Position numbers and translations under genes: made by a program | Assembly (NCBI GenBank): GCA_045600105.1 | Contig: JAZRXG010000049.1 | Span: forward strand, 304-64,303 | Direction: 5' to 3' | DNA from: Eubacteriales bacterium | GTDB lineage: Bacteria > Bacillota > Clostridia > Oscillospirales > CAG-382 | DNA length: 64,000 nucleotides | Notes under the pieces: model-generated | Seen by the model: the letters and a program-made list of their open reading frames with translations, nothing else | What the model was told of the DNA's origin: nothing | Database searches by the model: none | In this document: one piece after another, positions 43,192 through 60,491 of the stretch | How the letters are laid out: every line of letters starts with the position of its first letter | How positions within the stretch are numbered: position 1 is the first letter of the stretch

Positions 43192-44721
43192 ATGGTAAGA
43201 GTGATAACCACGTTTGCCCTTAACGGAATAGACGGCATCCCCGTGTTCGTCGAGGCGACCTCGTTCAAATCGAGCGACCCGAAAATCACGCTTATCGGTC
43301 TTCCCGACACCGCCGTCAAAGAATCGCTCGAACGCGTCCACGGCGCCGCCGTCGCATCGGGCATCAAGCTCAGGACGGGGCACGTCACGGTCAACCTCGC
43401 TCCCGCCGACGTGAGAAAAGAGGGCTCGTCGTTCGACCTGCCCATCCTCCTTTCGATGCTGGACGAGTCGATATCCGAACGTTTCGACACGGCGGGAAAA
43501 GCGTTTGCCGGTGAGCTTTCGCTGACGGGTGAACTGCGCCCCATAAACGGAGCGCTTTCGATGGCGATAGCCGCCCGTGACAGCGGGATAAAAGAAATAT
43601 ATCTTCCCGACGCCAACGCCGCCGAGGCGTCCGCCGCGGAAGGGATAGACGTATTCCCCGTTTCAAGCGTGAATCAGCTCTGCCGTCATCTGACCGGTGA
43701 CGAGAAAATCGCAAAGACCGTCTTCTCGGAAGAGGCGTTCACGCGCGAAGCGTTCCTGTCGGCGCTCGATTACCGCGACGTGAAGGGTCAGGACACGGCG
43801 AAAAAAGCGATCGAGCTCGCCGCTGCCGGTAGCCACAACCTGCTTATGATCGGGCCTCCGGGCTCGGGCAAAAGCATGCTCGCCTCCCGCATACCGTCGA
43901 TACTTCCGCCGATAACGCTCAAGGAAGCGATCGAAACCACGAGGATACACTCGATAGCCGGCGCTCTCGGAAACGGAGTGTCGCTCATCTCCTCCCGTCC
44001 CTTCCGTTCGCCGCATCACACGATGTCGACCGCGGGGCTTGCCGGAGGCGGAAAGAATCCGAAGCCGGGCGAGATCTCGCTCGCTCATCACGGAGTGCTT
44101 TTCCTTGACGAATTCCCCGAGTTCGACAAAAGCGCGATGGAGGTGCTGCGTCAGCCGCTCGAGGAACGCCTTATAAATATAACGAGAGTAAGCGGAACGG
44201 TGTCGTATCCGGCGTCGTTCATACTCGTCTGCGCCATGAACCCGTGCAAATGCGGCTGGTTCGGTCATCCCACCCACCCGTGCACCTGCTCGGAAATATC
44301 GCGCAAGGCCTATGTTTCGAAAATTTCGGGCCCGCTTCTCGACAGGATAGACATCCAGGTCGAGGTACCGTCGCTCGACTACGCCGGCGTTTCGATGACG
44401 AAGGAATCGGAGCCGAGCGAAGAAATAAGAAAAAGAGTCGTTGCCGCCCGTCTTTTCGCGGCGGAACGCTTCGGCGACCCCGCAATGGCGAACGGACTCA
44501 TGACGCCCTCGCAGATACGTAAATTCTGCGTCGTCGACGACGGCGGGAACGAGCTGCTCAAAAAAGCGTACACGACGATGTCGCTTTCGGCGCGAAGCTA
44601 CGACAGACTGCTCAAGGTAGCGCGCACGGCAGCCGATTTCGACAGATCGGACGACATAAAGAAGCGTCACATAGCGCTTGCGCTTCAGCTCCGCACGCTT
44701 GACAAAAAATACTTCGGTTGA
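43192..44721 (+). CDS. comM: YifB/ComM family Mg-chelatase-like AAA+ ATPase
   Basis: Lon-protease-like N-domain, Walker A GPPGSGKSMLA, Walker B LFLDEFPEF, C-terminal Mg-chelatase domain; 509 aa. Confidence 0.92.
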   Translation: MVRVITTFALNGIDGIPVFVEATSFKSSDPKITLIGLPDTAVKESLERVHGAAVASGIKLRTGHVTVNLAPADVRKEGSSFDLPILLSMLDESISERFDTAGKAFAGELSLTGELRPINGALSMAIAARDSGIKEIYLPDANAAEASAAEGIDVFPVSSVNQLCRHLTGDEKIAKTVFSEEAFTREAFLSALDYRDVKGQDTAKKAIELAAAGSHNLLMIGPPGSGKSMLASRIPSILPPITLKEAIETTRIHSIAGALGNGVSLISSRPFRSPHHTMSTAGLAGGGKNPKPGEISLAHHGVLFLDEFPEFDKSAMEVLRQPLEERLINITRVSGTVSYPASFILVCAMNPCKCGWFGHPTHPCTCSEISRKAYVSKISGPLLDRIDIQVEVPSLDYAGVSMTKESEPSEEIRKRVVAARLFAAERFGDPAMANGLMTPSQIRKFCVVDDGGNELLKKAYTTMSLSARSYDRLLKVARTAADFDRSDDIKKRHIALALQLRTLDKKYFG

Positions 44722-44781
44722 CGGTTATCCTTCACAACTTAACATAATCCGCCGGATTTTTCCCCTATTCCGGCTCACGGA

Positions 44782-44868
44782 TGTGGATAACTATGTGGAT
44801 TATGTTGATAACTCCCGCGATTTTCAATAGTTTTCCACATACCGGGCGATTTTCCGGCGTGTGGATAA
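44782..44868. promoter_or_regulatory. cluster of five DnaA-box 9-mers
   Basis: TGTGGATAA (44782-44790, perfect), TGTGGATTA (44794-44802), TGTTGATAA (44803-44811), TTTTCCACA (44831-44839), TGTGGATAA (44860-44868, perfect). Compared with the TTATCCACA consensus: two perfect, three with one mismatch. Confidence 0.7.
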
Positions 44869-45026
44869 CCGATTTCATAATGTCCGGAAGCACGTTATTA
44901 TGTCAACACGGCGTTACCGGTCCGTTCTTTTTGAAGGATACGGAAGGTCGTCCGTATGAATAAACAACACGTTTTGACCCCTTAACGCGGTTTTGCGTTT
45001 GCCCCCTTACGAAAGGAAGCGATTAC

Positions 45027-45857
45027 ATGGATTTCGACGGAAACGAGCTCCCCGAGGAAATACCCGCGGAGCGTCCGCCGCAGAATAAAGTGACGAAAAT
45101 AATAAAAAAGGTCCTCAAATATACCTTCATAGCCATCGTGACGGCGGTCTGGGTCTTCATCCTGCTTTCGATATTCCTTCGCCGCGACGACGCGATACTC
45201 GAAACTCCCATCCTTTCCGAAAGCGCGAGGAACGCTTTCAAGGAAGACAAAAAAGGCTTCACGACCTACGAAGTCCACACCAAGGAGCACATGAACTACG
45301 ACGGCACGTTCCAGCTCGCCGGAAACGTCTACGCCGAAAAGGCGAACGAGCTTGAGGTGGGGCTGAGGATAGCGTGGACGCAGCTGAGGTACTGCGAGGA
45401 ATGCGGCAGGCTTTACACCACCGAGCAGCTCGACAGTCAGAAGGCTGACGACAAGCCCGATAAAGGCATACTCGCGAGCTGCGAAGCCAAAGGTCACCAT
45501 GTCGTGAGGGCTCCCGAGTCCGACAGAGGCATCGTGTGGACGCTCACCGACTCAGACGGAAACGTCTATGAAAAGGTGAACGAAAAAGGAAAGACCAAGA
45601 ACCTCAATTTCGGTTTCTTCAAGATCAGGTACGAATATATCCGCAGCTGCTTCGGCAAGGTATATTTTGACATCGAGAACAATATAATCAATACGGTAGG
45701 CAAAGAAGTCACAGATCAAGGCAAAGGTACCCTTTACTATTTCCGCATATACGACGAGGTTACCGGCGACACGCTGTTTTCAACGTGTCTGTACGATAAC
45801 CAGACCTATATCGAGGAGTTCGAGTACGAGCTTCCCGACAAGGACTATATCAGTTGA
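45027..45857 (+). CDS. hypothetical single-pass membrane protein
   Basis: 276 aa ORF with one TM helix (YTFIAIVTAVWVFILLSIF) and a CxxC..C motif (YCEECG). No family recognised. Confidence 0.65.
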   Translation: MDFDGNELPEEIPAERPPQNKVTKIIKKVLKYTFIAIVTAVWVFILLSIFLRRDDAILETPILSESARNAFKEDKKGFTTYEVHTKEHMNYDGTFQLAGNVYAEKANELEVGLRIAWTQLRYCEECGRLYTTEQLDSQKADDKPDKGILASCEAKGHHVVRAPESDRGIVWTLTDSDGNVYEKVNEKGKTKNLNFGFFKIRYEYIRSCFGKVYFDIENNIINTVGKEVTDQGKGTLYYFRIYDEVTGDTLFSTCLYDNQTYIEEFEYELPDKDYIS

Positions 45858-45878
45858 ATTCTGAAAGGACGCGCCAAA

Positions 45879-46811
45879 ATGACTTATAACATTTTTCAAA
45901 AAATGATGTACGTGATACTCGCCGTCACGGTAGCGTGCGCGGTAGGTGTCGCCAACTACATCTATCTGCCCTCGGATTCCCGTATGCCGAATACGAAGAA
46001 GACCGCCGCTTTTCTCGACAGGTACTATGAAACGAACGAGAAGGTGCTGAAGGAGCTCTTCCCTTACGAAGAACCCCAGTACACCCTCGAGGTCCCGTAC
46101 AATATGTCGTACACGACCGCCGAGTTCCAGCAGTTCGTCGGTACCTATCTCACCAAGACCGACGAAAAGAGAGCCACGAGCTACATGAAGAACATCTGCT
46201 TCTGCGGCGACTCGCTCAGCTGGCACATGACCTGGGCGGGAAACAAGCCTCTTGAGAATTACGACGTCGTGGGTATGATGGGTCTTTCGGTCGGCGACTA
46301 CGCGACGTGGCTCGACCCTCAGAATCACTATTCGAGCTATAACCACTCCGACGATACGTCCAAGACCACGCTTTACTGGATCAAGAAGCTTCAGCCGCGC
46401 ATGATATACATAATGCTCGGCACGAACGGCGTCAACTATTACGACAACGACACCCATATAAGACTTTACAACGAGCTTCTCAACAAGATCACCGCCGCTT
46501 CCCCCAACTCCATAGTCGTCATCTGCGCGGTTTCTCCGTGGAACAAGCTCTGCGGCGAATCGATCTCGACCGTGTCGGCTCTCAACAACAAGATCGACCA
46601 CTTCAACATGATGCTCCTTGAGCTCGCGAAGAAGAGGGGACATTATTTCCTCAACGTCGCCGAGGATCTTCAGGCCCGCAAGACGAGCGGAAACGAGATC
46701 GCGGGACATCTCAAATACGACTTTACCGTAGGCGACGGTTACCACTGGAGCGATGCGGCGAGAAGCGCATACATCAATTACGTTCTCACTCATCCCGTCC
46801 CCGGTTTTTGA
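45879..46811 (+). CDS. membrane-anchored SGNH/GDSL family hydrolase
   Basis: Block I FCGDSLS, block III GTNG, block V DGYHW; N-terminal TM anchor. Confidence 0.8.
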   Translation: MTYNIFQKMMYVILAVTVACAVGVANYIYLPSDSRMPNTKKTAAFLDRYYETNEKVLKELFPYEEPQYTLEVPYNMSYTTAEFQQFVGTYLTKTDEKRATSYMKNICFCGDSLSWHMTWAGNKPLENYDVVGMMGLSVGDYATWLDPQNHYSSYNHSDDTSKTTLYWIKKLQPRMIYIMLGTNGVNYYDNDTHIRLYNELLNKITAASPNSIVVICAVSPWNKLCGESISTVSALNNKIDHFNMMLLELAKKRGHYFLNVAEDLQARKTSGNEIAGHLKYDFTVGDGYHWSDAARSAYINYVLTHPVPGF

Positions 46812-46859
46812 TAAACAGTCAGATGCCGTCCGATAAACGGACGGCATAATTGATATTAT

Positions 46860-47813
46860 ATGAAGGAAGACGCAAAAATGGATAATACTAAAGAAAAAGG
46901 AAACGAAATTTTCAGGATAAAGAAAAGCAGGAATCTGACGCCGCTGCTCGCGTTTTTCGCGCTGCTTCTGGCGTGTGCCTCGGGATATCTCCTTTATCTG
47001 TACTTCACGCTCGACCTCAAAATGCCGTTCGAGATACTCTTCCTCGTGGTAGGCGGCGTCGGCGCGGTATATTTCACCGTGTGTTTCTTCAATCTCCTTT
47101 ATCAGGTGATCTCTCCCAAGAACGCGCTGCTCATTTCGGAAGACGGTTTTCTTGACCTCATCAACGGCGACGCGGGCGCGGGATTCGTGAGCTGGACGAA
47201 CGTCAGCAGAGTGGAAATGCTCGGAGACGACAAGCCCTATATCGGCATCGGTCTGCTTTCGGTGTCTAATCTTGAAGAAAGTCCCACTAAAAAACTCACG
47301 TCACAGATGGAAGAAAGAGCATCGAAAGGGCTTCCCGAGCTCGTCATCCGTCCGTTTGAGATCGCGTGCGGTCTTGAAGAAGCGTTTTCGGCGCTGCGCG
47401 ATTTCCGCAACAGATATTACAGCCACCTCGACGCGGGCGACACCAACGTATTCGATGCCCGCAAGATACCCGGTCTTGAATCGCTGAACGAATTCGACGG
47501 TCTGTTCAAAGAAAAGGAAAATGAAAACGACGAAGATATCGAAAGCGGCGAAAAAAGCGGCGGCATTGCCGGCGCGATAGGGACCGACGAGGATACGCCC
47601 CTTGCCGACGACGACATAAAGATCGCCGAAAGCACCGACGTCGATGTTCCCGCCGAGAAAACCGACGACACCAAAAAATCGATAGACGAGCTGCTTGCCG
47701 AGCTTTCGGAAACCATAGGCAAAAAACGTGAGGAAACGTCTGAAAGCAGCACCGACAAAGCGGTGAACGACGGCATCGAGGAGCTTATAAAGCTTTTGAA
47801 AGAGAAAAAATGA
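46860..47813 (+). CDS. membrane protein with a PH-like domain and an acidic disordered tail (STM3941-like, tentative)
   Basis: Two TM helices, then ALLISEDGFLDL...WTNVSRVE (bacterial PH-like pattern), then a D/E-rich C-terminus. An alternative start is the in-frame ATG at 46878. Confidence 0.65.
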   Translation: MKEDAKMDNTKEKGNEIFRIKKSRNLTPLLAFFALLLACASGYLLYLYFTLDLKMPFEILFLVVGGVGAVYFTVCFFNLLYQVISPKNALLISEDGFLDLINGDAGAGFVSWTNVSRVEMLGDDKPYIGIGLLSVSNLEESPTKKLTSQMEERASKGLPELVIRPFEIACGLEEAFSALRDFRNRYYSHLDAGDTNVFDARKIPGLESLNEFDGLFKEKENENDEDIESGEKSGGIAGAIGTDEDTPLADDDIKIAESTDVDVPAEKTDDTKKSIDELLAELSETIGKKREETSESSTDKAVNDGIEELIKLLKEKK

Positions 47814-48565
47814 AAAGAATAACGGGAACATTCCTTGCCTTTTCCCTTCTCGTTCTTATGTTTTCCTGCGGTGAAAACGAAAACGTGTCAGGCGTTCCAA
47901 GCGTTCCGACCGTGTCGGAAATATCGGTCCCGTCTGTTTCCGAAGAGATATCGGAGGAATTTTCCGCCGACTTTTCTGCCGAAGAAACGAGCGATGTATC
48001 CGAAGAAACGTCTTTTTACGACGACCCGACATTACCCGTTTACGGAAAATACGGAAAAAAATATTTTGAACTGATCGATGGCGGAACGTATTGCCGCAGA
48101 ACGGTCGAGAGCCGCACCATCGGCGGCGAAGCCGTGCCTTACACGGTCACGGTGTACCGCAGTCCGGAAGCAGTCAACGTCGTGATCGAGGAAAGCTACG
48201 GAATGAAAACGACGTATATCATCCGCGACGGCAGGCTGATAACTCTCGACGGGTTTCAAAAGAAAGCGTATATCACCGAATACGACGGCACGGTATACGA
48301 AAAGCCGCTCTGGAACGGCGTGATAAAGCTGAAAAGCGAAGGAACGCAGACTCTGTTCCAGCGCAATTATCAGTACGAAACGTACAGAGATTCCGACGGA
48401 TTCGAGTTCACGGTGTTTTATTCCGAAGGCGTTCCCGAAAGATACCGCAGCTTCGACAAGGACAAGCTCGACACCATCGTGATAGATTTCACGGTAAGTG
48501 ACGATATGTCGGGAGCCGTGTTCGACATTCCCGAAAATTACAGTATCGCAGACTATACGAAATAA
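47810..48565 (+). CDS. putative lipoprotein of unknown function
   Basis: Signal peptide plus lipobox (LMFSCGEN) followed by a Ser/Glu-rich linker; 4-nt overlap with the preceding gene. Confidence 0.7.
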   Translation: MKRITGTFLAFSLLVLMFSCGENENVSGVPSVPTVSEISVPSVSEEISEEFSADFSAEETSDVSEETSFYDDPTLPVYGKYGKKYFELIDGGTYCRRTVESRTIGGEAVPYTVTVYRSPEAVNVVIEESYGMKTTYIIRDGRLITLDGFQKKAYITEYDGTVYEKPLWNGVIKLKSEGTQTLFQRNYQYETYRDSDGFEFTVFYSEGVPERYRSFDKDKLDTIVIDFTVSDDMSGAVFDIPENYSIADYTK

Positions 48566-48584
48566 GCCTGTTTTAAGGACAGTT

Positions 48585-49277
48585 ATGAAAAATAAGTTCA
48601 AAAAACTCATTGATTTTGTCATTGATTTTCTCAAAGCGCGTCCGTACAGCGCCATCCTGCTTTTCTGGATACTTGAATGGATATGGTACGGGATCCTCAA
48701 TCACCTGCAGACCGCCGAGACGAGCCACATAATGCATACCGCTCTCGACGACAGTATACCGTTCTGCGAATGGTTCATAATCCCCTACTGGATGTGGTAT
48801 TTCTACATAGCGGGCGCTACCCTCTACACGCTTTACAAATCCAAAAAAGATTTTCTGCGCACGGTAACGATGATATACCTCGGTATGTTCGGCAGCATGA
48901 TGATCTGCACGTTCTACCCGAGCTGGCATCTGCTCCGGCCCGAGACGATGCCCGACAACATCCTGTCGTGGTGGGTGCAGTTCACCTACACGCTTGACAA
49001 CCCCGCCGTCATATTCCCGTCCATGCACGTTCTCGTGGCGTTCCTCATAACGATCTCGCTGACTTTCGCCGACTGCATGAAGGGCAAAACGCGGACGAAA
49101 GTGCTGTGCTGGATATACGCGGTCGTCGTTTCGGCATCCACCGTGTTCGTAAAACAGCACTCGATAAAAGACGTATGGTTCGCGCTCGTATTCATCATCC
49201 CCTACACGCTGCTGACCTACTTCGTGATATGGCCCGCAAAGAGATTCAAAAAAGAAGATCAGGCAATTACCAAATAA
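48585..49277 (+). CDS. PAP2 superfamily membrane phosphatase/phosphotransferase-like protein
   Basis: Polytopic, with FPSMHV and KQHSIKDV (PAP2 motifs C2/C3). Start set to ATG 48585, because the longer ORF-track start overlaps the previous gene. Confidence 0.7.
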   Translation: MKNKFKKLIDFVIDFLKARPYSAILLFWILEWIWYGILNHLQTAETSHIMHTALDDSIPFCEWFIIPYWMWYFYIAGATLYTLYKSKKDFLRTVTMIYLGMFGSMMICTFYPSWHLLRPETMPDNILSWWVQFTYTLDNPAVIFPSMHVLVAFLITISLTFADCMKGKTRTKVLCWIYAVVVSASTVFVKQHSIKDVWFALVFIIPYTLLTYFVIWPAKRFKKEDQAITK

Positions 49278-49407
49278 AGCAAAAGAGAGGCTCGTCCTCT
49301 CTTTTTTGATAAAAAATATGATAAAAACGAAAAATTTTCCGTTTTCATGTCCGTTTTTCGCGATGTGAAACGTATTATAAGCAGAAGACCGAAAGGAAGT
49401 GAATGCC

Positions 49408-49941
49408 GTGAACAAGCTGATATGCGAAAAAAGGTGCAAAGCCGCGCTTGAAGGTATAGCGTCGGGCGACAAAACGAAGCTCACCGTCATATACGACTGT
49501 CTCGGACGTCAGATATTCACGCTTTCACTGTCCATCCTCGGGTCGGCAAGCGACGCGGAAGACGCGATGCAGGATACCTTTCTTAAAGTGCTTAGTCACA
49601 TCGACACCTACCGCAAAGACGGCAGCGCAGCGTCGTGGGTGCTTTCCATCGCACGGAATTCATCACTCGACATCATGAGAAAAAGAAGGTACGATCTTGA
49701 CGTAGACGAGCTTCCCGTTTCGGACGAACCGTCGTACACCGACGGAGGACCCGACGTGAGCGACATGCTCGCGTGTCTTGACGAAGCCGACAGAGAGATA
49801 GTGACACTCAAAACAGTCTCGGGGATGAAGTACAGGGAAATCGCATCCGTCACGGGGCTCTCGGTCTCCGCTGTCCAGAAACGCCATCAGCGCGCTCTGG
49901 AAAAACTTCGCGAATACAACAGAAAGGAAAACAGAAAATGA
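49408..49941 (+). CDS. ECF-type RNA polymerase sigma-70 family factor
   Basis: Region 2 (DAEDAMQDTFLKV) and region 4 HTH (MKYREIASVTGLSVSAVQKRHQRALEKL). GTG 49408 is 8 nt from AAAGGAAG; the ORF-track start is GTG 49399. Confidence 0.8.
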   Translation: MNKLICEKRCKAALEGIASGDKTKLTVIYDCLGRQIFTLSLSILGSASDAEDAMQDTFLKVLSHIDTYRKDGSAASWVLSIARNSSLDIMRKRRYDLDVDELPVSDEPSYTDGGPDVSDMLACLDEADREIVTLKTVSGMKYREIASVTGLSVSAVQKRHQRALEKLREYNRKENRK

Positions 49942-51656
49942 AAGCAGAAAAGCAAATAAAAAAGTATCTGAAATCCGTTCCGCTTCCTTCTCAGAACAGC
50001 GTGCTGCCCGACGAAGCGTTTGAAGTCAAAGAGATCGCGCGCCCCGCAAAGAAAAGCAGCGTGAGCAGACGCGTCGTCAACGGAATCGCCTACGCGGCGG
50101 TCGCTCTCACCCTCACGGCGGTCATCGCAGCCGCCATCTTCATTCCGTCCGTGACGACCAACACGGTCACGCCCGGTGACGGGACGGATGGATCCAAAGA
50201 AGCGGTGGCGGAAAAAAGCGGATCGGAAAGCACCCCTGCCTGGAGCTGCTGGCTTCGAAAGACCGGCGAGGAAACGGTCGACGGACTCACCTATAACTTC
50301 GACAAGCTCGACTCCGGCATCCTCAATATGACTGCCAACGAAAACGGCAAGCGTTACGTACAGGTCTTCCGTTTCAACAGCGACGATGAGATAATCGGAA
50401 ACAACGAATTCCACACCGATAAAGAACTTTCGGCGCTGTCTTTTGACGAAAAAGTCGCGGCGATCGTTCCGGCTTTCTGGCAGTACAACGTGGTCTCGGC
50501 AGACGACACAAAAAGGCTCTGCATAATCGACCCGCTTGCGGGATATGATATTCCCGCGGAAGCCGAAAAGTATTTGTCAGAATACTCCGCGCCTCCTGTC
50601 GTGACCGAACAGAACGAGGACATTTACCTTGACGGCATACCCGCTTCGTTTTCGACAATGCTCGCCCTGCTTGAAGCGTACGGTATCGACGACGCCGACT
50701 ACGTGGGCGCGTACGAATACGCTCCGCTTTTAGGAAGCCATCCCGAAAACGGCACGCGCTGGCTTGGCTACTTTATGATCTACGCCGACGAAGACCTCGT
50801 GAAGACTCTGCTCGCGGACGGCCGTCTCGTCGCAAGACTCGATCCCCTTCCCAAACCGGCGTCACAGATCGGCTATCTCTATACACCGGCGGAAGAAATC
50901 AAATTTGCCGAAAAGGATCCGCCGGCAGACGATATCGATTCCCTTAAAAGCAAGATAGCACACGATTATTACGGTTTCTTAGGCGACTGCAAGCTCCTTT
51001 ATCCGATCGTCGAAGAAGACGGCATTTACGTGCAGAAATATTTCGGCACATTCAACGGAAGCTCCATCGTATTCATGGGCGGCGACTGGCTGGCTGTCAC
51101 CGAGGCTTACCGCGACGTGACTCTCGGAGAACACACCATTACCTTCCCCGACGGGCAGATATGCTGGGTATACAACGACGGCAATTTCCGCAGACTTGAG
51201 GAAGCATACGAAATCGGCCTTATCACCGACGCCGACGTCGAGGTATTCGGTCCCGAGGTCGGGATCGCGTTCGACGGTGTTGAAAAATACGCCGATCAAC
51301 AACTCGTTCCCAAGCATCCGCTTGACACCGAGGATATAGACAAAGCTCTCGCGTCCGATATAAAATACTACTATCGCGAAGCGTTCCGCAGTTCGTGCGA
51401 TATTACGACCATGTATATCCCCGTATATTATGAGACGGAACAAGGTGATTCGGTCGTTCTTGTCTGCGGTGAAGATTGGGTGCACGATGATGTGTTCATA
51501 ACACAACATCTCTGTGGGCATGATCTTTATTTCCCTAACGGCTACGTTCCGGATTTTTACTGCGGCGGTTCGTTTATGAGTCTTAAAGAAGCATACGACA
51601 AGGGACTTCTTACCGAAAACGACTTTGCGAATCTCGAAATGATTTTCCACGAATAA
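49938..51656 (+). CDS. single-pass membrane protein coupled to the ECF sigma factor (putative anti-sigma/sensor) with an internally duplicated extracytoplasmic domain
   Basis: 4-nt overlap with the sigma gene. TM helix at about aa 50-70. Two repeats of about 100 aa (nt 50929-51250 and 51331-51645). Confidence 0.7.
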   Translation: MKAEKQIKKYLKSVPLPSQNSVLPDEAFEVKEIARPAKKSSVSRRVVNGIAYAAVALTLTAVIAAAIFIPSVTTNTVTPGDGTDGSKEAVAEKSGSESTPAWSCWLRKTGEETVDGLTYNFDKLDSGILNMTANENGKRYVQVFRFNSDDEIIGNNEFHTDKELSALSFDEKVAAIVPAFWQYNVVSADDTKRLCIIDPLAGYDIPAEAEKYLSEYSAPPVVTEQNEDIYLDGIPASFSTMLALLEAYGIDDADYVGAYEYAPLLGSHPENGTRWLGYFMIYADEDLVKTLLADGRLVARLDPLPKPASQIGYLYTPAEEIKFAEKDPPADDIDSLKSKIAHDYYGFLGDCKLLYPIVEEDGIYVQKYFGTFNGSSIVFMGGDWLAVTEAYRDVTLGEHTITFPDGQICWVYNDGNFRRLEEAYEIGLITDADVEVFGPEVGIAFDGVEKYADQQLVPKHPLDTEDIDKALASDIKYYYREAFRSSCDITTMYIPVYYETEQGDSVVLVCGEDWVHDDVFITQHLCGHDLYFPNGYVPDFYCGGSFMSLKEAYDKGLLTENDFANLEMIFHE

Positions 51657-58012: not shown

Positions 58013-58120
58013 GGTGTTTTCGTATTTCGAACGAACCGTCCCTCTCGCAGTACCTTTGTACAGCTTCGACCGATCTTCATCCGAATGCTCCGTGCCCTTA
58101 TGCTCTCGGCATTATGTAAA

Positions 58121-58148
58121 CAAAAAAGAACTTCCGTGAGGAAGTCCT
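58121..58148 (-). terminator. intrinsic terminator of the nfnAB-cysK operon
   Basis: On the minus strand, a GGACTTCC-TCAC-GGAAGTTC stem (one mismatch) followed by TTTTTTG. Confidence 0.6.
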
Positions 58149-58179
58149 TTTTCATTAGTTATCAGTTATTGGTTTACTC

Positions 58180-59109
58180 TCATTCTTCGAACAGAGGAGT
58201 GGAGAAATAGCGTTCGGCGGTATCGGGAAGGACGGTCACGACGGTCTTGCCCTTGCCGAGTTTTTTGGCAAGCTTAATCGCCGCCGCCACGTTGGTGCCG
58301 CTCGAAATGCCGCACATTATGCCTTCCTTGGACGCGAGTTCCTTCGAAACGCGGATGGCTTCGTCATCCTTGACGATGCAGATATCGTCGTAAATATTCT
58401 GATTGAGGATGACGGGGATGACGCCGTCACCGATGCCCATCTGAATATGCGTGCCGATCGAGCCGCCGGAGAGTATCGCCGCGTTCTCTGGTTCGACCGC
58501 CCAGATGGTCATATCGGGGTTCGCTTCCTTGAGCACTTCGCCGATGCCGGTAATGGTGCCGCCGGTGCCGATGCCGGAGCAGAAGCCGTGGATGGGACCG
58601 TCGACCTGCTCGAGTATCTCGCGCGCGGTCTGCGAACGCTGGATATCGGGATTCGCGGGGTTTTCGAACTGCTGAGGAACGAACACGTTGGGGTCTTCGT
58701 CACGCATTCTCAGCGCGAGATTCAGACATTCCTCGATACATTCGCCGATATTGCCCGCGTCGTGGACGAGGATGACCTCGGCGCCGTAGTGGTTGACGAG
58801 CTTTCGCCTTTCCTCGCTGACCGAGTCGGGCATGATTATTTTGGTTTTGTAGCCGCGCACCGCGCCGACCAGCGCAAGTCCGATGCCCTGGTTGCCGCTC
58901 GTGGGCTCAACGATGACGGTATCCCTGCCGATGAGTCCTTTTCGTTCGGCGTCGAGTATCATATTGTAAGCCGTGCGCGTCTTGATCGAGCCGCCGACGT
59001 TGAGCCCCTCGAATTTGACGAGTATTTGGGCGCTGTCGGGCTCGCATATACGGTTGAGACGGATGATGGGCGTGTTGCCCATCGCGTCGAGTATGTTTGA
59101 GCAGATCAT
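58180..59109 (-). CDS. cysK: cysteine synthase A (O-acetylserine sulfhydrylase)
   Basis: GNTPIIRL, GGSIKTR (PLP lysine region) and EPTSGNQGIGLA; 309 aa. Confidence 0.92.
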   Translation of the reverse strand: MICSNILDAMGNTPIIRLNRICEPDSAQILVKFEGLNVGGSIKTRTAYNMILDAERKGLIGRDTVIVEPTSGNQGIGLALVGAVRGYKTKIIMPDSVSEERRKLVNHYGAEVILVHDAGNIGECIEECLNLALRMRDEDPNVFVPQQFENPANPDIQRSQTAREILEQVDGPIHGFCSGIGTGGTITGIGEVLKEANPDMTIWAVEPENAAILSGGSIGTHIQMGIGDGVIPVILNQNIYDDICIVKDDEAIRVSKELASKEGIMCGISSGTNVAAAIKLAKKLGKGKTVVTVLPDTAERYFSTPLFEE

Positions 59110-59111
59110 TT

Positions 59112-60491
59112 TTATTTGTTATATTTAGCGTCGATGACTTCAGCTGCTTTTTTGCCCGCGCCCATGGCAAGTATGACGGTTGCCGCACCCGTTACGGCGT
59201 CGCCGCCGGCGTAAACGTTTTCACGGCTGGTCATGCCGTTTTCGTCAACGATGATGCCGCCCCATTTTTCGGTATCGAGTCCTTCGGTGGTGGACTTGAT
59301 GAGGGGGTTGGGGTTGTTGCCGAGCGCCATGATGACGCCGTCGACCTCGATGGTATGTTCGCTTCCCTCTTTGACGATGGGGCGTCTTCTGCCGGAAGCG
59401 TCGGGCTCGCCGAGTTCCATCTCGACGCACACGATGCCGTTAACGAATTTCTTATCGTCGCCGGTGATCTCGACGGGGTTGGTGAGGAACTTGAAGACGA
59501 TGCCTTCTTCCTTTGCGTGTTCGATCTCTTCACGGCGCGCGGGAAGCTCGGCTTCGCTTCTGCGGTAGATTATGTAAACCTCGTCCGCTCCCATGCGCTT
59601 TGCGCATCTGGCAGCGTCCATAGCGACGTTGCCGCCGCCGACGACAGCGACCTTTTTGCATTTGAGGATGGGGGTATCGGAATCGCGGTATGCTTTCATG
59701 AGGTTGATGCGGGTGAGATATTCGTTGGCGGAATAAACGCCGCTGAGGTTTTCGCCCTTGATGTTCATAAACTTGGGAAGACCCGCGCCGCTTCCGACGA
59801 AAATGGCTTCGTAGCCTTCGTCAAGCAGCTCGTCGACCGTGACGGTCTTGCCGATTATTACGTTGGTCTCGATCTTTACGCCGAGTTCCTTGAGGATCTC
59901 GATCTCTTTTGCGACGATGGTCTTGGGAAGACGGAATTCGGGAATGCCGTAAACGAGAACGCCGCCGGGAACGTGGAGCGCCTCGAAGACGGTGACGTCC
60001 CAGCCTTTGGAGGCAAGTCCGCCGGCGCAGGCGAGTCCGGAAGGACCGGAGCCGATGACCGCGGCTTTATGTCCGTTGGAAGCCGGCTTTTCGGCTTTTG
60101 CGGAAGTATTTGCATTGTGCCAGTCGGCAACGAAACGTTCGAGTCTGCCGATTCCGACAGGTTCGCCGTTTTTGCCTCTGACGCACTTGGATTCGCACTG
60201 GGTCTCCTGAGGGCAGACGCGTCCGCAGACCGCAGGAAGCGCGTTGTTCTGCTTGATTATGGAATACGCGCCCTCGTAATCACCGTCAACGATGGCTTTG
60301 ATGAACGAGGGGATGTTTACGTTTACGGGGCAGCCGGTGACGCAGAGCGGATTTTTGCAGTTGAGGCATCTTGCCGCTTCGTCAAGCGCGATTACTTCGG
60401 GATAGCCGAAAGCGACCTCATTGAAATTGGTGCATCTTATCTCCGGCTTTTCGCTCGGCATGGGGTTTTTGGTCTTTTTAAGGTTTGCCAT
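59112..60491 (-). CDS. nfnB: NfnB/SudA/GltD-type NADPH-dependent iron-sulfur flavoprotein (large subunit)
   Basis: Two N-terminal Cys clusters (CLNCKNPLCVTGCP, CGRVCPQETQCESKC) and two dinucleotide folds (VIGSGPSGLA, VVGGGNVAMD); 459 aa. Confidence 0.88.
   Translation of the reverse strand: MANLKKTKNPMPSEKPEIRCTNFNEVAFGYPEVIALDEAARCLNCKNPLCVTGCPVNVNIPSFIKAIVDGDYEGAYSIIKQNNALPAVCGRVCPQETQCESKCVRGKNGEPVGIGRLERFVADWHNANTSAKAEKPASNGHKAAVIGSGPSGLACAGGLASKGWDVTVFEALHVPGGVLVYGIPEFRLPKTIVAKEIEILKELGVKIETNVIIGKTVTVDELLDEGYEAIFVGSGAGLPKFMNIKGENLSGVYSANEYLTRINLMKAYRDSDTPILKCKKVAVVGGGNVAMDAARCAKRMGADEVYIIYRRSEAELPARREEIEHAKEEGIVFKFLTNPVEITGDDKKFVNGIVCVEMELGEPDASGRRRPIVKEGSEHTIEVDGVIMALGNNPNPLIKSTTEGLDTEKWGGIIVDENGMTSRENVYAGGDAVTGAATVILAMGAGKKAAEVIDAKYNK

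Follow-up and report, generated by a model that had tools for sequence, protein, structure and literature searches.

The stretch of DNA analysed here (64 kb, called the window) is C49:304-64303, that is, positions 304 to 64303 of contig C49 in the draft genome of a Eubacteriales bacterium (2.10 Mb, 52% G+C, 51 contigs). In the window, the stop codon of comM (also called yifB) at 44721 and the start codon of the next open reading frame (ORF) at 45027, called gene X below, are separated by a gap of 305 bp. A cluster of five DnaA boxes occupies 87 bp of this gap at 44782-44868. Two of the boxes are perfect and three have one mismatch; four lie on the (-) strand and one on the (+) strand. The initial annotation had reported five boxes between these two genes, and the scan recovered the same five sites while the ORF calls agreed on the gap. 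The remaining one-mismatch matches in the window, seven in number, are all scattered. Genome-wide, there are 18 perfect and 284 one-mismatch boxes, and from this density about 3e-7 clusters of five boxes in 87 bp are expected by chance in the whole genome. The region had also been described as not obviously AT-rich, which holds: the G+C content is 46% in the spacer between comM and gene X and 52% in the whole window, and the box triplet itself makes up the most AT-rich 30-mer of the spacer (70% AT). As argued below, the comM cluster is probably a selected, predicted high-affinity, non-origin DnaA-binding cassette, a DnaA-box cluster (DBC) in the sense established for Bacillus subtilis.

How strong would the cluster be as a DnaA site? 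The Ishikawa score A is the summed affinity of four successive boxes divided by the mean inter-box distance, and A > 0.3 picks out exactly the eight DnaA sites found by chromatin affinity precipitation on chip (ChAP-chip) in B. subtilis (PMC2533591). The DBC criterion used here, at least four closely spaced boxes (TTATNCACA, with at most one mismatch) and A > 0.3, is derived from B. subtilis, and the distance definition for A was verified against Table 2 of PMC2533591. It was found that boxes 1-4 give an A of 0.84 and boxes 2-5 one of 0.50, whereas the next best region of the whole 2.1-Mb genome has 0.14; the B. subtilis DBCs range from 0.36 to 1.64. The comM cluster is the sole region of the genome with A > 0.3 and is, by the B. 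subtilis criterion, its only predicted stable DnaA site. In this clade, the TTAT end of the boxes is degenerate (TGTGGAWWD). A box pattern adapted to the clade detects just two clusters genome-wide, seven boxes after tsaD (gcp) on contig C9 and the five boxes after comM.

Is the cluster conserved after comM? With ComM as the query, I collected 80 loci from named genomes, all of them uncultured Clostridia labelled Eubacteriales or Oscillospiraceae. Where ComM is 55-77% identical, 16 of 17 loci have two to six boxes within about 150 bp past the stop codon, in the same orientation pattern. Where it is about 50% identical (Faecousia and others), none of 63 loci has three or more boxes. According to GTDB kinship, all nine evaluable genomes of the same genus have the cluster, as do five of 13 other genera in the family; none of five other families of the order has it. 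In Table 1, the information content (bits per column) of an alignment of 18 orthologous comM spacers from 18 species (ComM 55-77% identical) is given together with the positions of the features. Outside the genus, the repeats are mostly TGTGGAAAA, and the conservation is strongest on the TGTGGA core. A strain of about 90% identity, seen as a metatranscriptome contig, differs at 20 positions, and those listed (about half) all lie outside the boxes. Judged by this phylogenetic footprint, the boxes are evolutionarily constrained.

Table 1. Features at the comM locus, with window coordinates and conservation in the alignment of 18 comM spacers
Feature	Position	Strand	Sequence	Bits per column	Remarks
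comM/yifB	43192..44721	(+)			509 aa; Mg-chelatase-like AAA+ ATPase; Pfam Mg_chelatase/ChlI/Mg_chelatase_C; NCBIfam TIGR00368 YifB family, 514 bits
Left flanking motif	44739..44748	(+)	TTAACATAAT (family consensus GTTTACATAAT)	1.79	40 nt upstream of box 1
DnaA box 1	44782-44790	(-)	TTATCCACA	1.81	perfect; GTGG core in 18/18 loci
DnaA box 2	44794-44802	(-)	TAATCCACA	1.47	one mismatch; 12 nt start-to-start from box 1, 3-nt gap
DnaA box 3	44803-44811	(-)	TTATCAACA	0.36	one mismatch; directly adjoins box 2; bits are family-wide; conserved in the genus and in just a few further loci
DnaA box 4	44831-44839	(+)	TTTTCCACA	0.95	one mismatch; sole box in the opposite orientation
DnaA box 5	44860-44868	(-)	TTATCCACA	1.45	perfect; 78 nt past box 1
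Middle motif	44871..44881	(+)	GATTTCATAAT		third CATAAT element, directly past box 5; common to the tsaD cassette (TGTGGATTTCATAAT)
Candidate sigma-A-type promoter of gene X	44874..44901	(+)	TTCATA-16-TATTAT		9/12; -35 starts 5 nt past box 5
Right flanking motif	44894..44907	(+)	GTTATTATGTCAAC	1.01	inverted copy of the left motif
Spacer columns				0.42	
Gene X	45027..45857	(+)			276-aa single-pass membrane protein; usual downstream neighbour of the cassette

The comM cluster is not the origin of replication (oriC). The absence of dnaA, dnaN and rpmH from the window had been noted at first sight and oriC had been considered unlikely. Indeed, these genes are located on contig C24 (dnaA at C24:20698-22086) in a canonical origin setting, where jag, yidC, rnpA and rpmH on one strand diverge from dnaA, dnaN, recF, gyrB and gyrA in the ancestral arrangement. 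The rpmH-dnaA spacer contains DnaA boxes and a 30-mer at 97% AT. The dnaA-dnaN spacer contains one perfect box and a second box, TTATCCACT, followed by a GC-rich spacer and a run of CTA-type repeats (TACACGGCGG TA CTA ATA CGA TCA CTA CAA CTA CTT). As read from its sequence, this layout is a basal unwinding system (BUS). At the same spot, the closest long-read relative has the trio run CACCGCC TA CTC CTA CTA TCA CTA CTA CTT CAA CTA, and a more distant relative has the box / GC-spacer / trio element in mirror-image arrangement; the element is kept in the relatives L087 and L085. At the comM cluster, a rule-based BUS scan found no DnaA-trio run, its formal matches being neighbouring boxes read as trios. 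The formal rule with three trios is too permissive, and manual inspection and conservation in relatives were added to it. An AT-rich DNA unwinding element (DUE) next to the comM boxes was not found in the spacer scan.

A GC-skew plot had been recommended as a check of the origin and turned out to be uninformative. In a long-read genome of the same genus (G001, identical with G011), the skew stays within +/-0.045 (per 20 kb) and the gene-strand bias is patchy along contigs of 866 kb and 507 kb, the surroundings of dnaA included. Contigs C9, C24 and C49 of the studied genome likewise have an essentially flat skew. The skew test is powerless to place the origin in this lineage. In the long-read genome, contig 1 carries dnaA (at 480 kb) and contig 4, which is 866 kb long, carries the comM cassette (at 661 kb). 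In the studied draft genome, the order of the contigs is not fixed, and the distance from the comM cluster to dnaA is at least about 33 kb. As an origin marker, parS was tried and discarded. Only two perfect parS sites (TGTTTCACGTGAAACA) exist genome-wide, at C29:1983 and 3372, 1.4 kb apart; both are on a small separate contig (13 kb) and are of no help for the relation of C49 to C24. Separately, a stretch of at least 35 nt (TTATCCACTcagataaaagtacaCTTTTACTCTTT) is identical at C5:70 and C24:30021; this repeat could reflect either a join between contigs or an element present more than once.

It might be objected that the chromosome has its origin, or a second and cryptic one, at the cluster and that dnaA has moved away as in Escherichia coli. 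By the strict criterion the cluster is the densest of the genome, stronger than the flanks of dnaA, and the GC skew cannot exclude an origin role. Against this stand the missing DUE and trio run, the dnaA locus with its ancestral gene order, 97% AT block and conserved box / GC-spacer / trio element, and a near-identical cassette at a second locus. An essential origin, moreover, could not be absent from most family members and from the remainder of the order, as the cassette is. This idea is extremely improbable. The first suggestion of a non-origin cluster of the B. subtilis DBC or E. coli datA type is thus borne out by four observations, namely the A score, the footprinted boxes, the lack of trios and DUE, and the location of dnaA elsewhere.

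The second locus is the tsaD cluster (C9:50763-50895; the whole cassette is C9:50739-50909, also L092:2540-2700), which has seven boxes, three of them perfect, and lies between convergent genes. It was revealed that the tsaD and comM clusters are 74% identical over about 200 bp and have the same parts in the same order. I measured the geometry over 27 comM loci and 10 tsaD loci. The spacing from box 1 to box 2 is 12 nt, invariant in all comM and tsaD cassettes measured, and box 3 follows at +20 to +22 from box 1 in genus-level loci. The left motif (ACATAA) is 39-42 nt upstream of box 1 in 15 comM loci, 30 nt in eight and 20 nt in two, and it is 20-21 nt upstream of box 1 in all ten tsaD loci; these spacings are steps of one helical turn. 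Within the genus, boxes 1 and 5 are 74-79 nt apart. Loci with a left spacer shortened by 10 nt have instead 85-87 nt here, a distance longer by 10 nt. From the last box, it is 36-41 nt to the right motif (TTATGT). In the studied genome, the inverted flanking motifs span 156 nt at comM and 157 nt at tsaD. The position of the middle motif is occupied by AATAAT or CATAAT in genus-level comM cassettes. This phasing suggests a protein that contacts the DnaA complex, and the ACATAAT motifs are candidate accessory sites for it.

The tsaD cassette is kept in all ten same-genus relatives with a tsaD match, in several other genera and in four of 11 other families of the order. Since it is kept in these other families too, the tsaD cassette is older than the comM copy. 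A miniature inverted-repeat transposable element (MITE) or another mobile element as the source of the two similar cassettes was considered and rejected, because each copy is syntenic across genera.

The motif TTTACATAAT occurs in 28 copies in the genome against roughly three expected from base composition (an estimate), and many of the copies are inside genes. Examples of the motif are at C41:10147-10170, C20:27065, and 23910 and 58120-59580 of the window. Several intergenic copies lie directly past terminators or are arranged as CATAATTATG palindromes or tandem copies. Another observation concerns the box register. Two perfect tandem boxes at C41:1407-1427 (TGTGGATAA CTA TGTGGATAA) repeat the 12-nt register of boxes 1 and 2. 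The 281-aa Rep-like ORF (1243-2088) that contains them stands beside a recombinase-like ORF, and the pair is probably a DnaA-recruiting origin of an integrated or plasmid-like mobile element.

Does the cluster regulate gene X? The cassette always lies past the comM stop codon, and gene X is co-directional and downstream of it in nearly all loci. A scan of the (+) strand between comM and gene X found no terminator. The right motif contains a -10-like TATTAT on the (+) strand and a -35-like TTGACA on the (-) strand. In one subclade, it aligns with a clean TATAAT 25-35 nt upstream of the ATG. The (+) strand element TTCATA-16-TATTAT just past box 5 might tentatively be taken as the promoter of gene X. 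Its geometry is not kept beyond the genus, and the distance from box 5 to the -10-like sequence varies from 5 to about 28 nt among relatives. On the (-) strand, the right and middle motifs together give TTGACA-18-CATTAT, which is roughly kept in the genus; it was rejected as a promoter on account of its wrong spacing in the tsaD cassette and the lack of RNA support. The left ACATAAT motif was likewise rejected as a -10 sequence: there is no conserved -35 at 16-18 nt, an extended -10-like TGACATAAT is found in only six loci, and the motif is frequent inside genes. The TTGATA-17-TAGTTT promoter proposed in the initial annotation falls below the threshold of the promoter scan and lies in the least conserved part of the spacer.

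Besides metagenome runs, the available data are two low-depth metatranscriptome runs. One contig of 209 nt (run X22), from the strain of about 90% identity, covers exactly 44758-44965, starting about 9 nt past the left CATAAT. Coverage is patchy for this organism, at only about 2-4x, and in the same run it misses the tsaD cassette. The contig may be a discrete transcript or may just reflect sparse coverage; it is too weak to call a transcript.

From these data, one could propose that the cluster is mainly a promoter operator, at which DnaA acts as a transcription factor for gene X (in the genus, also for the genes behind it) and couples them to the replication status, titration being incidental. 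The co-directional gene X, the missing terminator, the promoter-like element that starts 5 nt past box 5, the TATAAT of the subclade and the 209-nt RNA contig would all fit, and DnaA regulates the neighbours of several B. subtilis DBCs (PMC3245932, PMC2533591). In contrast, the tsaD twin sits between convergent genes and has nothing to regulate. The -35 sequence of the promoter-like element is poor and its distance from box 5 varies, and the RNA is a single low-depth contig from a 90%-identical strain that has no counterpart at the tsaD cassette. Moreover, genus G020 has the cassette after comM, followed by fhs instead of gene X, while three genera have gene X only 20-30 nt behind comM without any boxes. 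Thus, the cassette appears to be an autonomous insert tied to the 3' end of comM. An operator as the main function is accordingly a rather doubtful proposition. An autonomous DnaA-related function is somewhat more likely than a dedicated promoter operator, because the promoter-less tsaD twin shares the architecture and the cassette is independent of gene X; the two functions are not mutually exclusive. The suggestion that the cluster could control the whole downstream envelope gene set (45027-51656) is not supported, since only gene X is syntenic in relatives and the rest is not.

It was also considered whether the TGTGGA-type repeats are bound by another regulator, or belong to an RNA element in the 3' untranslated region of comM or the leader of gene X, so that the match to the DnaA box would be a coincidence. 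The prevalence of TGTGGAAAA outside the genus, the peak of conservation on the TGTGGA core and the short RNA contig over the region could be explained in this way. The idea is very unlikely: the family consensus departs from TTATCCACA at no more than one position, two of the repeats match TTATCCACA perfectly, these repeats also mark the flanks of dnaA, and the paralogous tsaD cassette occupies the position of a B. subtilis DnaA site verified by ChAP-chip. In addition, an Rfam search of the region gave no family match, and the conservation tracks the 9-mer boxes, not paired stems.

The preferred DBC reading is best appreciated by comparison with known systems. Like the comM cluster, the B. subtilis DBCs are intergenic, have four to eight boxes in 44-96 bp, and are not unwinding sites. 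The six B. subtilis DBCs jointly restrain initiation, and several of them also regulate their neighbours (PMC3245932). When all six are deleted, initiation is early, and one re-inserted DBC partly rescues it (PMC3245932). The tsaD cassette is the positional match of B. subtilis DBC[gcp-ydiF], which also follows gcp between convergent genes and was called 'uncharacteristic for transcriptional regulation' (PMC2533591). The position after comM, in contrast, has no counterpart among the B. subtilis DBCs. Likewise, I found no description of inverted ACATAAT flanks or helical spacing steps for the B. subtilis DBCs.

The E. coli datA locus resembles the comM cluster in being a non-origin locus with five DnaA boxes. 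It lowers the initiation potential and depends on IHF, a second DNA-binding factor whose place among the boxes is fixed. It differs in acting by IHF-dependent DnaA-ATP hydrolysis and has no sequence relationship to the comM cassette. Firmicutes are not known to have IHF. Boxes 1 and 2 resemble the box pair of the oriC BUS (Richardson 2016/2019; Pelliciari 2021, PMC8287927), as they have the same orientation, are at most 3 bp apart and keep the 12-nt register; in the BUS, this geometry nucleates the DnaA oligomer at oriC (PMC8287927). Unlike the BUS, the pair is followed by neither DnaA-trios nor an AT-rich element, and the BUS of this genome lies between dnaA and dnaN. In DnaA-regulated promoters (B. 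subtilis dnaA, sda, ywlC and yydA), boxes also lie beside a promoter-like element of a co-directional gene. At comM, in contrast, the promoter geometry is not conserved and gene X is dispensable for retention of the cassette.

Would the cassette instead reactivate DnaA? In E. coli, small box clusters likewise form the cores of the DnaA-reactivating sequences (DARS) and act together with accessory factors, as mentioned in PMC3245932. The conserved non-DnaA motifs of the cassette could be such accessory sites, and the cassette would then promote ADP release from DnaA and would not be a sink. Firmicutes are not known to have the cycle of Hda-dependent regulatory inactivation of DnaA (RIDA) on account of which DARS are needed, and nucleotide exchange by B. 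subtilis DnaA proceeds readily. A DARS-like role is therefore highly improbable.

For the favoured non-origin DBC, I infer the DnaA occupancy, the effects on initiation and transcription and the partner protein as follows. DnaA, most likely DnaA-ATP, would bind cooperatively to the head-to-tail boxes 1-3 (in a 12-nt and 9-nt register) and also to boxes 4 and 5. A stable nucleoprotein complex would form on about 90 bp and leave the DNA closed, since DnaA-trios and an AT-rich unwinding element are both missing from the cassette. The complex would keep several DnaA molecules off oriC, and initiation would be dampened or timed in the way that the B. subtilis DBCs act collectively. Since the cassette sits in the sole non-coding gap between comM and the next gene, the complex may also be an operator or a roadblock for transcription across the gap. 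The three ACATAAT-type motifs around the boxes, placed in helical phase, are probably the recognition sites of a partner protein. The design would work without a promoter to control, because the tsaD cassette lies between convergent genes. A more far-reaching version can be offered as a tentative possibility, itself rather unlikely. The comM and tsaD clusters may be two copies of a self-contained 'DBC cassette' of about 165 bp, with inverted ACATAAT motifs 156-157 nt apart, a third copy past the last box, the box triplet in a 12/9-nt register and distances between motif and box that vary by whole helical turns only. On it, DnaA would assemble with an ACATAAT-binding partner that has an IHF-like role, as at datA and DARS2. 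It would be a dedicated replication-control device of a family of gut Clostridia, and the comM copy would have been duplicated from a much older, tsaD-linked DBC that is common to Bacillus.

Several points weigh against the DBC interpretation. A site of five boxes can hold only a few DnaA molecules. Single deletions of B. subtilis DBCs have little effect, and the rescue by a DBC is strongest near oriC (PMC3245932). Five of the six B. subtilis DBCs are origin-proximal, whereas the comM locus is not: in the 2.2-Mb G011 genome, the comM cassette is at least 232 kb, or at least 10% of the genome, away from dnaA. The promoter-like element lies beside box 5 and a co-directional gene is located downstream of the cassette in every comM locus seen, so that a purely local transcriptional role is possible. 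Because ACATAAT is common in this genome, finding it does not by itself mark a DnaA site. All that represents this uncultured organism is metagenome-assembled genomes (MAGs), and DnaA binding to the cassette is predicted from its sequence. Finally, two of the six base-contacting residues of DnaA are changed, the equivalents of P423 and H439 being K and S, and the affinity for the E. coli consensus is an assumption. The list of the base-contacting residues was taken from PMC2533591. The DnaA of this organism retains the R399 equivalent and the D433-H434-T435 base contacts in the sequence 'RDHTT'. I take these residues to be equivalent on the basis of my own alignment to the E. coli and B. subtilis DnaA motif. 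The K and S substitutions may explain why the clade boxes have a fixed TGTGGA core and a loose other end.

As for the neighbouring gene, gene X has no Pfam or NCBIfam match, and only 12 homologues, all unnamed, are present in the database; they are restricted to this family. An AlphaFold model (predicted local distance difference test, pLDDT, 86) has one transmembrane helix and a beta-rich extracytoplasmic domain, which carries a CxxC...C..H insert within the genus. A search of the model against the PDB gave no fold match.

What do these results mean for this lineage? The kind of element is known; what is new is the position after comM, the occurrence of a gcp/tsaD-linked DBC in Clostridia, and the rigidly built cassette, in which the ACATAAT motifs are phased. 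In the lineage, the origin is a different place from the strongest predicted DnaA site, a point to bear in mind when oriC is predicted automatically in MAGs with a flat skew. Experiments on DnaA-box clusters outside the origin have covered very few organisms (the DBCs of B. subtilis, and datA and DARS of E. coli), and such clusters may mainly be sinks, sensors or chromosome-organising sites. In the uncultured gut lineage described here, a predicted DBC has been held in place across genera. Its shared architecture at two loci and its phased non-DnaA motifs point to a candidate site for a partner protein, which may offer a handle on how such clusters work.

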